DNA of 64,000 nt from Escherichia coli (GTDB lineage Bacteria; Pseudomonadota; Gammaproteobacteria; Enterobacterales; Enterobacteriaceae). A program made the position numbers. The stretch lies in NCBI RefSeq assembly GCF_048403405.1, contig NZ_CP183129.1. The stretch is one strand, 5' to 3'. Positions 18,001 through 21,000 of the stretch are shown here, piece after piece; position 1 is the first letter of the stretch; every line of letters starts with the position of its first letter.

Positions 18001-21000
18001 CACTGAAGATTATTCTGGTGGATTAGTAACTGGCGAGGGTTTCCAGATATCATGAGTTCTGATTACGCAGGAGAACTCATGATCTGGATAATGCTCGCCA
18101 CGCTGGCGGTAGTGTTTGTGATTGGTTTTCGGGTGCTGACATCCGGGGCCAGAAAAGCGATTCGCCGTCTCAGCGATCGGCTGAATATCGATGTCGTACC
18201 CGTGGAGTCGATGGTCGATCAAATGGGAAAGTCAGCCGGTGACGAATTTTTACGTTATTTGCATCGTCCGGATGAGTCGCACCTGCAAAACGCCGCGCAG
18301 GTGCTGCTCATCTGGCAAATTGTCATTGTCGATGGTAGCGAACAGAACCTGCTGCAATGGCATCGGATTTTACAAAAAGCCCGCCTTGCCGCTCCCATTA
18401 CCGATGCTCAGGTCAGGCTGGCGCTGGGTTTTCTGCGCGAAACCGAACCTGAAATGCAGGATATTAATGCTTTTCAGATGCGCTATAACGCGTTCTTTCA
18501 GCCTGCCGAGGGCGTTCACTGGCTGCATTAAAACCGCTTCGTCTTATCAGCCTACAGACCGCGCCTGACCTGTAGGGTGGATAAGGCGTTCACGCCGCAT
18601 CCGGTATCGGAACTGACAGTAGGTGAACGCATTATCTACGTTCTATTTACAGCAGCACCTCCAGCCCGTGTTTTTGCACAATGCTGAGCAGTTTTAATGA
18701 AATGCCATTGGGGCGTTTAGCGCCACTTTCCCATTTTTGTACAGTTGAAACGCTGGTATTGAGATAGTGAGCGAAGACGGGCTGACTCACTTTTAATTTT
18801 TCCCGCAGTGCTTTTATCTCAACAGGTTGTAAGTCTTGCACGCTGGTCAGGCAGGCTTTGTCAAAAGTACGCATCGTTTCAGCAGAAATCGCATCGACGC
18901 TGGACAATCCAGCCGCTGCGCTGTGAATAGCCTCAAATGCAGGACTTTTAAATTTAGTTTTTGCAGTCATAGCAGATCTCTGTCAGTTCTTTAGTGTTAA
19001 TCATTGCTGTTAGTTGGGCTTTCGTCAGGAAGGCATAATGCTTTGCAAGTTCACGAAACCCAGCCAGTTCCTGACTATTGATGTTCGACATATCCTGTTT
19101 TGCATATAAAAACGTGTAAAACCAATTGCTTCCTCCTTTCGCCAGAATAATTGCACGCTCACGATTTTTGTGAAGGCGCTTTTTAAAAAAGCCACCACCA
19201 AGTACATCAGCTTTACCTTGTTCCGTTTCTAAAATGGCCCGGCACAACTCTTCATCTGTTATTGCATGAGACCTGGCTTCCCTTGCAAACCATTTGGTTT
19301 TAAACACGCGCATATCGTTGAGATCCTGTTATTAAAGTATATTACCAAGTGCAATACTTTATCCCTTATTCCCAACACAATCGCGAAAATACATATCACC
19401 TTGCCCTATGATTTTTATTTCTTCGAGCAGCCTCGAACTTTTCCCACGACACCGTAAAAGTTGCAAAAACGTTAAATGCGTCACACATTTCAATGTTAAA
19501 GTGGTCGGCTTTTCCCCTGAAACATGCCACGGGTAACACCATGAGTGAATTTATTGCCGAAAACCGCGGCGCGGATGCCATCACCCGACCGAACTGGTCA
19601 GCCGTTTTCTCGGTGGCGTTTTGTGTCGCCTGTCTGATTATCGTTGAGTTTTTGCCCGTCAGTTTGTTGACGCCAATGGCCCAGGATTTAGGCATTTCGG
19701 AAGGGGTTGCCGGGCAATCGGTGACCGTGACCGCATTTGTGGCAATGTTTGCCAGTTTGTTTATTACCCAGACAATTCAGGCCACTGACCGCCGCTACGT
19801 TGTTATTTTGTTTGCCGTTTTGCTGACGCTCTCCTGCTTGCTGGTTTCCTTTGCTAACTCATTCAGTTTGCTTTTAATCGGTCGTGCCTGTCTGGGGCTG
19901 GCGCTGGGCGGGTTCTGGGCGATGTCGGCGTCGCTGACCATGCGTCTGGTACCGCCGCGTACGGTGCCGAAGGCGCTGTCGGTGATCTTCGGCGCGGTTT
20001 CTATTGCGCTGGTGATTGCCGCACCGTTGGGCAGTTTTTTAGGCGAGCTTATCGGTTGGCGCAATGTCTTTAATGCGGCGGCGGTGATGGGCGTGCTGTG
20101 TATTTTCTGGATTATCAAATCATTGCCTTCGCTGCCAGGCGAACCCTCGCATCAGAAACAAAATACTTTCCGCTTATTACAACGTCCGGGTGTGATGGCA
20201 GGGATGATCGCCATCTTCATGTCTTTCGCCGGGCAGTTTGCTTTCTTCACGTATATTCGCCCGGTGTATATGAACCTGGCGGGATTCGGCGTGGATGGCT
20301 TAACGCTGGTGCTGTTGAGTTTTGGTATCGCCAGCTTTATTGGTACGTCGCTTTCGTCGTTCATTCTTAAACGTTCGGTAAAACTGGCCTTAGCGGGCGC
20401 GCCGTTAATACTGGCAGTGAGTGCGTTGGTGCTGACGTTGTGGGGAAGCGATAAAATCGTTGCTACCGGCGTGGCGATTATCTGGGGGCTAACTTTTGCA
20501 TTGGTTCCTGTCGGCTGGTCAACGTGGATCACCCGCTCACTGGCCGATCAGGCAGAAAAAGCCGGGTCTATTCAGGTGGCGGTTATTCAGCTTGCTAATA
20601 CCTGTGGCGCGGCAATCGGCGGTTATGCGCTGGATAATATTGGTCTGACTTCGCCGTTGATGTTGTCCGGCACATTGATGTTGCTGACGGCGTTATTGGT
20701 CACCGCAAAGGTGAAAATGAAGTAACGTATTTACAGGAGGGTTATTGCTCTGGCGGGAAAGCTCTCCTGTTCTTCCCCCTGATAACCCTTGATCAGGTAT
20801 TGTTCTTATCTTGTTGTTATTTCCATTATTCCGCCTGTATTCATCATTTGCTAATCATGAATCATCATTTTCTCTCATGTTAAAGAAAGGTCATTTAATC
20901 TGAACGCATAGCGACAGGGATGACAAATGGCAGGGAAAGCGCATGGGAACGGCGATCGTCGGGGCGATAACACCATATGTGGATTGGGGGATCGTTTACG

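Follow-up and report, generated by a model that had tools for sequence, protein, structure and literature searches.

A chromosomal toxin-antitoxin module of the HigB2/HigA2 kind between yicN and nepI of Escherichia coli, probably an old resident of the locus

In the window, a stretch of 64,000 nucleotides from Escherichia coli (contig NZ_CP183129.1 of assembly GCF_048403405.1), a pair of small overlapping genes lies between yicN and nepI. The initial annotation regarded the pair as a toxin-first RelE/HigB-like toxin-antitoxin (TA) module and, because no such module was known at this position in K-12, as probably strain-variable cargo. What kind of TA module is this, and is it a recent arrival or a resident that other strains have lost? 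The elements of the locus are as follows.

18079-18531, plus strand: yicN, from the annotation of strain TUM14771, which is 100% identical
18579-18605, minus strand: REP element, one mismatch to the 27-nt consensus (no matches in 100 shuffles)
18607-19451, no strand: 845-bp segment for which K-12-type genomes have 46 bp instead, from alignment with the locus of a K-12-lineage genome
18647-18970, minus strand: antitoxin gene, ATG start, 107-aa HTH_3 protein
18954-18970, minus strand: 17 bp shared by the toxin 3' end and the antitoxin start, from the ORF listing
18954-19313, minus strand: toxin gene, ATG start, 119 aa, PF06296 RelE / HigB2 family
19541-20725, plus strand: nepI, as annotated in TUM14771

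Both reading frames were found as first described, the toxin lying upstream of the antitoxin on the minus strand with 17 bp in common, and their placement between yicN and nepI agrees with the annotation of TUM14771. They are not chance ORFs, since the toxin gives a full-length match to PF06296 and the antitoxin contains an HTH_3 domain. PGAP starts the toxin at a GTG at codon 3, which yields 117 aa as opposed to the 119 aa of the ATG ORF, and translation of the two proteins is probably coupled through the overlap. The pair at 18647-19313 is an ordinary two-gene TA module that is real, annotated before and not new; elsewhere, in approximately 1700 complete E. coli genomes, RefSeq annotates it as a RelE/ParE-family toxin with an HTH protein. 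Indeed, the locus itself offers little for discovery, with its genes annotated, its family on record as HigB2-type, and its Salmonella orthologue already named and tested. A search of the literature on nepI or yicN with toxin or antitoxin, on PF06296 and on COG4737/DUF1044 (DUF1044 being the former name of PF06296) found no E. coli-specific study of the nepI-yicN TA locus. The yicN and antitoxin genes are convergent, with the REP element between their 3' ends.

The proposal that the toxin belongs to the RelE superfamily is borne out by its match to PF06296 (RelE; E 5.5e-40, 136.8 bits), in which residues 1-113 cover positions 1-120 of the 120-position model; this is the only Pfam family that the toxin matches. 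A search of 1.84 billion representatives returned 733 relatives at E<=0.001. The Vibrio cholerae toxin HigB2 (VcHigB2), the sequence of which was verified against PDB 5ja9, also falls in PF06296 (E 3.3e-8). An AF2 model of the window toxin (pLDDT 85, pTM 0.79) has the beta-sheet topology of RelE, and when it was compared with the PDB by Foldseek, ranks 1-11 were all VcHigB2 chains (probability 0.99-1.00, TM 0.48-0.62), to which the high-probability matches were limited. RelE itself appeared at rank 24 with an E-value of 0.3, and matches to E. coli HigB were much weaker (TM 0.26-0.29). Identity between the window toxin and VcHigB2, the one relative studied for both structure and mechanism, is low, at 20-22%, and neither phmmer with the toxin nor a 34-sequence profile of the enterobacterial clade retrieved anything from the PDB by sequence, HigB2 included, even at E<=10. 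Given these empty searches, the link to HigB2 is taken from Pfam, hhalign, transitive BLASTP and the fold search.

The alignments place R46, R53, Y70 and K72 of the toxin on the catalytic R51, R64, Y82 and K84 of VcHigB2, weakly by hhalign (E 0.012) and also by transitive BLASTP through the family member P0261 (E 2e-8). All four HigB2 catalytic positions are conserved in the toxin. Among 34 diverse family members R46, R53 and K72 are at least 90% conserved, and the Tyr82 equivalent, Y70 in this toxin, is Phe in most. In core PF06296 members, the window toxin among them, the C-terminus continues into a further helix and strand, bearing an invariant Glu (E112), that HigB2 lacks, whereas the long Lys/Gly-rich beta2-beta3 loop of VcHigB2 is absent from the window toxin. 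The toxin of this strain also carries V42F, a private change at one of the sites conserved to at least 90%.

The XRE helix-turn-helix proposed for the antitoxin lies at its C-terminus, where Pfam HTH_3 matches residues 52-96 (E 1.2e-7). The closest solved relative is V. cholerae HigA-2 (5jaa_A, E 8.3e-10), residues 46-102 aligning with its residues 38-94. Orthologues in five other genera are 77-85% identical, and the N-terminal 45 or so residues are strongly conserved among them. By analogy with HigA2, whose intrinsically disordered N-terminal segment folds on its toxin and neutralises it, this N-terminal segment (about 1-45) probably binds the toxin; the argument is one of analogy because the AF2 model built from six orthologues is of low confidence throughout (pLDDT 63), with a helix at 10-21. 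E. coli antitoxins have H68 where the Salmonella counterpart has R68. The antitoxin family occurs in phages too (phrog_2104, E 9.7e-27). Two other family assignments were considered and rejected. For MqsA, the TIGR03830 score of 41.1 bits is short of the 61.8 cut-off and comes from the HTH half alone (profile 47-119); the Pfam MqsA_antitoxin match covers only model positions 53-123, without the zinc-binding CxxC...CxxC domain of the MqsA N-terminus; and no MqsR (PF15723) match was obtained for the toxin. For NadS (NF041265), the HTH region alone contributes a score of 41.3 bits, where 60 is required.

The nearest characterized relative is relBE3ST of Salmonella Typhimurium (relE3, SL3743/STM3777; relB3, SL3744/STM3778), a positional orthologue that adjoins nepI and that, like the E. 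coli module, spans 667 bp and encodes 119 and 107 aa with a 17-bp overlap. The toxins are 68% and the antitoxins 80% identical. The primers published for cloning relBE3ST align with the Salmonella locus, operator palindrome included, and the 667-bp size agrees (PMC4366850). Expression of relE3ST inhibits growth (Lobato-Marquez et al. 2015, PMC4366850), although in the same study the cognate RelB3ST failed to neutralise it (PMC4366850). The name "relBE" is misleading here, because the toxin gene comes first and the antitoxin has an HTH instead of the RelB ribbon-helix-helix. SehA/SehB was considered as the Salmonella counterpart, which would imply inhibition of RNase III, and was set aside: SehA is approximately 40% identical to K-12 HigB and its key residues (Y53, D61, H88 and others) do not map on the Salmonella orthologue of the window toxin, the true orthologue of the pair being relBE3ST.

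Further afield, V. cholerae HigB2/HigA2 (VCA0468/0469; PDB 5jaa, 5ja8, 8a0x) shares with the module the PF06296 family, the toxin-first order, the RelE fold, equivalent Arg/Arg/Tyr/Lys active-site positions and a homologous C-terminal HTH (E 8e-10) behind an N-terminal segment. VcHigBA2 lies in a superintegron cassette, whereas the E. coli module is a fixed chromosomal locus. The mechanism of VcHigB2, with an active site described as RelE-like, was reported by Hadzi et al. 2017 (PMC5416850), and PF06296 has been listed as HigB2-type, toxin-first and acting by ribosome-dependent mRNA degradation (PMC11980606). HigBA1 and HigBA2 of Acinetobacter baumannii plasmid pAB120 are alike by description, with a toxin-first order, a RelE-like ribonuclease toxin and an HTH antitoxin, but are plasmid-borne and stabilise plasmids (PMC5906591); there the antitoxin autorepresses with the toxin as co-repressor (Armalyte et al. 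2018, PMC5906591). K-12 HigBA (YgjN/YgjM), Proteus Rts1 HigBA and Salmonella SehAB also combine a toxin-first order, a RelE-superfamily fold and an HTH antitoxin, but belong to other Pfam families (PF09907 for K-12 HigBA and SehAB, PF05015 for Rts1 HigBA), neither of which the window toxin matches, and in these three the toxin active site is not covered by the antitoxin. K-12 RelBE shares the RelE-superfamily fold and differs in its PF05016 toxin, antitoxin-first order and ribbon-helix-helix antitoxin (PMC11980606); an identity with it was rejected because the order here is toxin-first, the antitoxin HTH_3 and the toxin match PF06296 alone. The HigBA-type order of the initial annotation thus stands as far as toxin-first is concerned, and the precise type is HigB2/HigA2 (PF06296), not the HigB of Rts1 or K-12 and not K-12 RelBE.

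Upstream of the toxin gene, the intergenic region facing nepI contains the following candidate control elements.

19324-19327, minus strand: Shine-Dalgarno AGGA, 10 nt before the toxin ATG
19333-19361, minus strand: putative operator, an inverted repeat with outer palindrome TAAAGTAT-N13-ATACTTTA
19354-19349 and 19345-19340, minus strand: operator core half-sites TTGCAC and GTAATA, inside the outer palindrome
19336-19341, minus strand: candidate -10 box TATACT, read from the sequence, overlapped by the right operator half-site and conserved across genera
19360-19365, minus strand: weak candidate -35 box GGGATA, 18 nt upstream of TATACT

Six genera keep the core palindrome over TATACT ahead of the toxin start codon, and in all six CAGGAT, which includes the Shine-Dalgarno sequence, is invariant. 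The family operator consensus is TAGCAC-N3-GTGCTA; the copy at 19340-19354 is present but degenerate. E. coli copies have altered operator half-sites relative to Salmonella, and the window adds a private G to A change at 19343, an otherwise invariant operator position. A promoter and terminator scanner called no terminator, and no promoter between nepI and the toxin gene; as this consensus scanner did not call TATACT, the proposed promoter rests on its conservation across genera.

Of 5426 complete E. coli genomes, 1716 have the module annotated by RefSeq and 3667 have the K-12-type 46-bp filler at the site, so that the expectation of strain variability, for which a comparison across genomes had been suggested, holds. 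Every one of the 1716 copies is chromosomal, single in its genome and at one locus, and none is on a plasmid. The major E. coli allele is intact. In the O157:H7-type allele the toxin start is changed from ATG to ATA, and in strains 98218 and AR Bank #0349 the toxin has a stop at W8 and a 1-bp deletion; the antitoxin is intact in both. Some carriers therefore have an inactivated toxin, and about two thirds of E. coli, K-12 included, lack the module altogether. Inactivation that strikes the toxin first, by loss of the start codon, nonsense mutation or frameshift, provides a natural series for studying decay of a chromosomal TA system, and K-12 is a convenient host that is naturally null for it. 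An 83%-identical "allele" in strain HS-02 was rejected as a decay intermediate, because it has homopolymer runs throughout that are typical of assembly error.

We put at approximately 75% the probability that the locus is a chromosomal type II TA operon of the HigB2/HigA2 kind, with RNA cleavage, neutralisation, autorepression and ancestral loss as its inferred components. Transcription would run leftward, from a promoter between nepI and the toxin gene. By homology with VcHigB2, the toxin would enter the ribosomal A site and cut translating mRNA by means of Arg46, Arg53, Tyr70 and Lys72, and the N-terminal segment of the antitoxin would fold onto the toxin and inactivate it. A dimer of the C-terminal HTH would bind the palindrome that overlaps the -10 box, and the operon would thereby repress itself.

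It is also conceivable, if unlikely, that the TA module is genuine and its toxin acts on another target or another RNA, rather than as a ribosome-dependent mRNA endonuclease. SehA is a precedent, having a RelE fold and toxin-first order yet being no RNase and inhibiting RNase III (PMC12817084), and the C-terminal extension with E112, the Phe at the Tyr82 equivalent in most members and the failure of RelB3ST to neutralise RelE3ST point the same way. However, SehA comes from another family, near K-12 HigB, and the numbering of its residues does not match this one; the fold match singles out HigB2, and of the four HigB2 catalytic positions three are conserved to 90% or more. That the core enterobacterial PF06296 clade, in which the 107-aa partner is rigidly conserved, departs from HigB2 as a whole, its C-terminal extension supplying another catalytic residue or target, is an improbable variant; if true, there would be a distinct and unstudied mechanism at one locus across Escherichia, Salmonella, Citrobacter and Klebsiella. 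The failed rescue in Salmonella would be explained if neutralisation requires more than co-expression of the antitoxin, which alone might not suffice. Doubtful, too, is the idea that in this strain the module is a decaying remnant with an attenuated toxin, its antitoxin retained mainly as a small HTH regulator or as an anti-addiction gene. The private V42F and operator changes could weaken either activity in this strain, and decayed toxins beside intact antitoxins in other alleles, together with the absence of the locus from two thirds of E. coli, lend the idea some weight. Against it, V to F is conservative, the major allele is intact, and the window allele keeps both ORFs at full length with ATG, a Shine-Dalgarno sequence and all four catalytic-equivalent residues.

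Returning to the reading as a HigB2/HigA2-kind operon, we consider how E. coli came to vary at the site. The module is missing from the K-12-lineage genome (O16:H48), as had been presumed, where the 845-bp segment, made up of the two genes, their promoter/operator and 138 bp upstream, is replaced by the 46-bp filler. The filler contains one local 17/19 match to toxin codons that exceeds 500 shuffles, whereas spliced and global alignments of it to the cassette, the promoter-distal region and the Citrobacter and Salmonella loci all fell within the shuffle range. As a deletion scar it is only suggestive, and so the argument for loss rests on outgroup synteny. A module of 119 and 107 aa with a 17-bp overlap adjoins nepI in Salmonella too, and in Citrobacter koseri and Klebsiella oxytoca a pair of the same architecture is flanked by nepI and yicN. 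The overlap and toxin-first order also recur in Dickeya and Yersinia, at unrelated chromosomal sites. The toxin has a pN/pS of approximately 0.2 and the antitoxin one of approximately 0.1, with synonymous sites saturated, indicating purifying selection. Given the shared locus and architecture, the purifying selection and the lack of mobility genes nearby, the variation in E. coli is best read as ancestral loss. As to the direction of the indel, we infer a loss, in K-12-like E. coli, of a module long established at the nepI-yicN locus in Enterobacteriaceae.

The description as cargo is accordingly not supported, and replacing it with that of a probably ancient nepI-yicN resident is the modest addition that the analysis makes. 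We regard it as very improbable that the module was acquired recently as a mobile element, possibly for phage defence or island stabilisation, and inserted at the REP in some E. coli lineages. The features that could suggest this are its variable presence, a GC content of 44% compared to 52-53% in the flanking genes, its contact with the REP, the low-GC island beyond nepI, the compact modules at unrelated sites in Dickeya and Yersinia, and the phage members of the antitoxin family. Nevertheless, position, orientation and architecture are identical in Salmonella, Citrobacter and Klebsiella, all E. coli copies share one chromosomal locus, no integrase, transposase or direct repeats were found at the module boundaries, and the K-12 filler has the above-chance match to toxin codons. 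In addition, no family among the PADLOC anti-phage defence models matches the toxin, and the antitoxin gives only generic HTH matches (RmrA, HTH_VI).

The island on the other side of nepI carries iatC/eilA/eip and is of low GC. The REP at 18579-18605 lies just downstream of the antitoxin gene, as the mention of an adjacent REP/BIME had it, and is a neighbour at the left edge of the K-12 indel, outside the TA module. It is accompanied by a partial REP at about 18537-18557 and a weak Rfam match to the REP-derived naRNA4 at 18575-18640.

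The pair lies on the minus strand, and the 3' end of the toxin gene, the upstream member, runs 17 bp into the antitoxin gene. The six-frame ORF list returns both frames at exactly the coordinates, lengths and overlap of the initial annotation, which holds in all its details. The features are as follows:

18954..19313, minus strand, toxin ORF of 119 aa, ATG start (six-frame ORF list)
18647..18970, minus strand, antitoxin ORF of 107 aa, ATG start (six-frame ORF list)
18579-18605, REP, one mismatch to the 27-nt REP consensus, with none expected from shuffles

Flanking the module are yicN (plus strand) at left and nepI (plus strand) at right, the latter divergent from the toxin gene. 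Strain TUM14771 is 100% identical across the region and its RefSeq annotation gives the same gene layout, in agreement with the position originally assigned. The REP that had been placed beside the pair is backed by a weak match to the Rfam family naRNA4 (CssrE), a nucleoid-associated RNA that derives from REP sequences. The match, at window 18575-18640, takes in the REP and the spacer ahead of the antitoxin stop codon and scores 32.9 bits, where the gathering score is 59.5. The REP hairpin, common to the convergent yicN, is the sole 3' structure after the antitoxin gene; a promoter/terminator scanner found no intrinsic terminator on that side. RefSeq (PGAP) annotates a 117-aa toxin whose start is the GTG at codon 3 (window 19305-19313). 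However, five other genera keep the ATG at 19313 as the start, and its spacing from an invariant AGGA is better than that of the GTG, which makes the 119-aa form more likely wherever the ATG is intact.

The toxin matches the Pfam family PF06296 "RelE" end to end (E 5.5e-40), consistent with the RelE superfamily first proposed; searches against NCBIfam and the PADLOC defence models gave no hit. The C-terminal helix-turn-helix read in the antitoxin corresponds to a Pfam HTH_3 domain at residues 52-96; matches to the MqsA and NadS models are sub-threshold and restricted to the HTH halves, and among solved structures the closest in sequence is V. cholerae HigA-2 (5jaa; E 8.3e-10, residues 46-102). 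Because a PDB sequence search with the toxin, singly or as a 34-sequence profile, found no match, the protein was modelled with AlphaFold2 (pLDDT 85, pTM 0.79), giving a strand, two helices, four strands, two helices and a final strand. When this model was compared with the PDB using Foldseek, the top 11 hits were all V. cholerae HigB2 (VcHigB2) chains (probability 0.99-1.00, TM 0.48-0.62, identity 20-22%), with S. pneumoniae HigB, E. coli HigB, RelE, YafQ and ParE ranking far below. VcHigB2 itself (a sequence identical to PDB 5ja9_C) matches PF06296 at E 3.3e-8 and only over model positions 8-96 of 120, whereas the window toxin covers the model end to end, which argues that the latter is a core member of the family and VcHigB2, the one structurally studied member, a peripheral one. 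A recent survey describes PF06296 as a HigB2-type, toxin-first family acting by ribosome-dependent mRNA degradation (PMC11980606). We are nearly certain that the pair is a type II toxin-antitoxin module of the PF06296/HigB2-HigA2 kind, and the toxin-first RelE/HigB-like module had been rightly spotted and typed; for the account as a whole, mechanism and history together, we put the probability at about 0.75.

Individual alanine substitution of R51, R64, Y82 or K84 lowers VcHigB2 activity 170- to 3000-fold (PMC5416850). In the window toxin, R46, R53, Y70 and K72 pair with those four positions in a family-profile alignment against VcHigB2 of weak score (hhalign, E 0.012). The same register is obtained through P0261, a family member that retains the long Gly/Lys loop, aligns with VcHigB2 at E 2e-8 and was placed in a multiple alignment with the window toxin. 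R46, R53 and K72 are each kept in at least 90% of 34 diverse family members, and position 70 is Tyr in the enterobacterial group and Phe in most others. The long basic beta2-beta3 loop of VcHigB2 is missing from the window toxin. The toxin would probably act by ribosome-dependent mRNA cleavage, by analogy with HigB2. Our confidence is limited by the low identity to HigB2, by a C-terminal extension relative to HigB2 and by the fact that most relatives have Phe in place of the Tyr. It is also limited by the Salmonella orthologue, relBE3ST (SL3743/SL3744 = STM3777/STM3778), whose published span of 667 bp is the same as in the window. RelE3ST cut growth and RelB3ST failed to neutralise it; the primers used encode MRTFKTRW and ...VEVRHVSKN and carry the Salmonella operator sequence GTGTATCACCTGGTGCTATAC (PMC4366850). 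These primer sequences match the Salmonella locus. The failed neutralisation stands against the exact lengths and overlap kept across six genera. A further limit is the precedent of SehA, a toxin that inhibits RNase III; SehAB was considered as a counterpart and rejected, since SehA is a toxin of the K-12 HigB family and its functional residues could not be placed on the Salmonella orthologue. A different mechanism for the window toxin has a low probability, and mRNA cleavage is the reading we retain. A literature search turned up no study of this locus in E. coli. The module is already annotated in RefSeq and its Salmonella counterpart already named.

The toxin ATG is preceded by a perfect 8-bp inverted repeat, TAAAGTAT-N13-ATACTTTA (19333-19361). 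Alignment of the 90 bp 5' of the toxin gene from E. coli, Salmonella, C. koseri, K. oxytoca, Dickeya and Yersinia shows a core palindrome, TAGCAC-N3-GTGCTA, kept in all six genera, with TATACT directly after and overlapping it and an invariant CAGGAT Shine-Dalgarno downstream. We infer that TATACT is the promoter -10 box and that a putative antitoxin operator lies over it, the usual autorepression layout; a generic promoter scanner made no call here. A. baumannii HigBA can be likened by description, being reported as similar toxin-first ribonuclease/HTH pairs with autorepression. The E. coli half-sites, TTGCAC and GTGATA, deviate from the consensus TAGCAC and GTGCTA. Antitoxin codon 68 (window 18767-18769), in HTH helix 2, is His in all E. 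coli alleles examined and Arg in the Salmonella, Citrobacter, Klebsiella, Dickeya and Yersinia orthologues and in V. cholerae HigA2, and the two changes may represent repressor-operator co-variation.

The suggested comparison at yicN-nepI found the module in 1716 of 5426 complete E. coli genomes, in every case as one copy, on the chromosome at this locus and not on a plasmid, and a K-12-type arrangement in another 3667. The absence suggested for K-12 is borne out: in the K-12-type arrangement 46 bp, bounded by the REP and the nepI promoter, stand in place of window 18607-19451 (845 bp). The module is therefore strain-variable, as had been proposed, but the proposal that it is cargo is not supported, and this is the only substantive correction to the first reading. 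Salmonella carries a pair of 119 and 107 aa with a 17-bp overlap, divergent from nepI, and C. koseri and K. oxytoca carry one of the same dimensions between nepI and yicN; against this shared location, recent cargo has a low probability. Between genera, identity is 68-74% for the toxin, 80-87% for the antitoxin and 87-89% for NepI (83% for YicN, in the E. coli and C. koseri comparison only), and synonymous sites in the module are saturated; pN/pS is ~0.2 in the toxin gene and ~0.1 in the antitoxin gene. Outgroup synteny, saturation and low pN/pS together argue for long residence of the module at this site and for purifying selection on it, the K-12 state being most simply a loss. Its GC content (44%, versus 52-53% in adjacent genes) and the presence of the same compact unit at unrelated chromosomal sites in Dickeya and Yersinia make it plausible that the module was acquired horizontally at an older date, though not recently in E. 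coli. The 46-bp filler in the K-12-type yicN-nepI spacer (L001, 1533-1742) holds CTTTGCCCTGTTCCGTTTC, which agrees at 17/19 positions with toxin codons at window 19211-19229 (score 28, versus a maximum of 25 in 500 shuffles). As a deletion scar this is suggestive only, since more elaborate alignments of the filler were not significant.

Allele frequencies were estimated by sampling 60 of the 1716 carriers at even steps, with representative alleles inspected. The commonest allele (~45% of the sample) is intact. In the O157:H7/O145:H28-type allele (~18%) the toxin start is changed from ATG to ATA (window 19311), which accounts for the PGAP start at codon 3. A 1-bp deletion at window 18998 occurs in ~7% of sampled carriers. 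Of these, strains 98218 and AR Bank #0349 were inspected, and both also have the ATA and a stop at codon 8 (19291); PGAP marks their toxins frameshifted while the antitoxin is intact. Decay in these other E. coli alleles (L015, L016 and L017) thus hits the toxin first. The window allele is intact yet rare (15/1716 carriers at >=99% identity). It has a private V42F in the toxin (19188-19190), where at least 90% of the 34 family members and every other E. coli allele examined have Val. It also has a private G->A at 19343, in the right half-site of the operator, at a position that does not vary among five other genera and four other E. coli alleles. That the module is an attenuated remnant in this strain is improbable. 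The sole E. coli copy at 80-90% identity, in strain HS-02 (NZ_CP172818.1, 2074-3052), was rejected as a diverged allele, as both genes are full of long homopolymer runs (T, C and G tracts) that look like assembly error instead.

Beyond nepI the window contains:

20927-30601, plus strand, inverse-autotransporter adhesin of 3224 aa, annotated iatC
within 30653-37615, minus strand, low-GC block (37%) after iatC, with EilA (a HilA-family regulator) and an IpaD/SipD-like needle-tip protein

The low-GC block also encodes a YopB/SseC-like translocon subunit and a SycD/LcrH chaperone, and is followed by yicS, which in K-12-type genomes lies directly after nepI.
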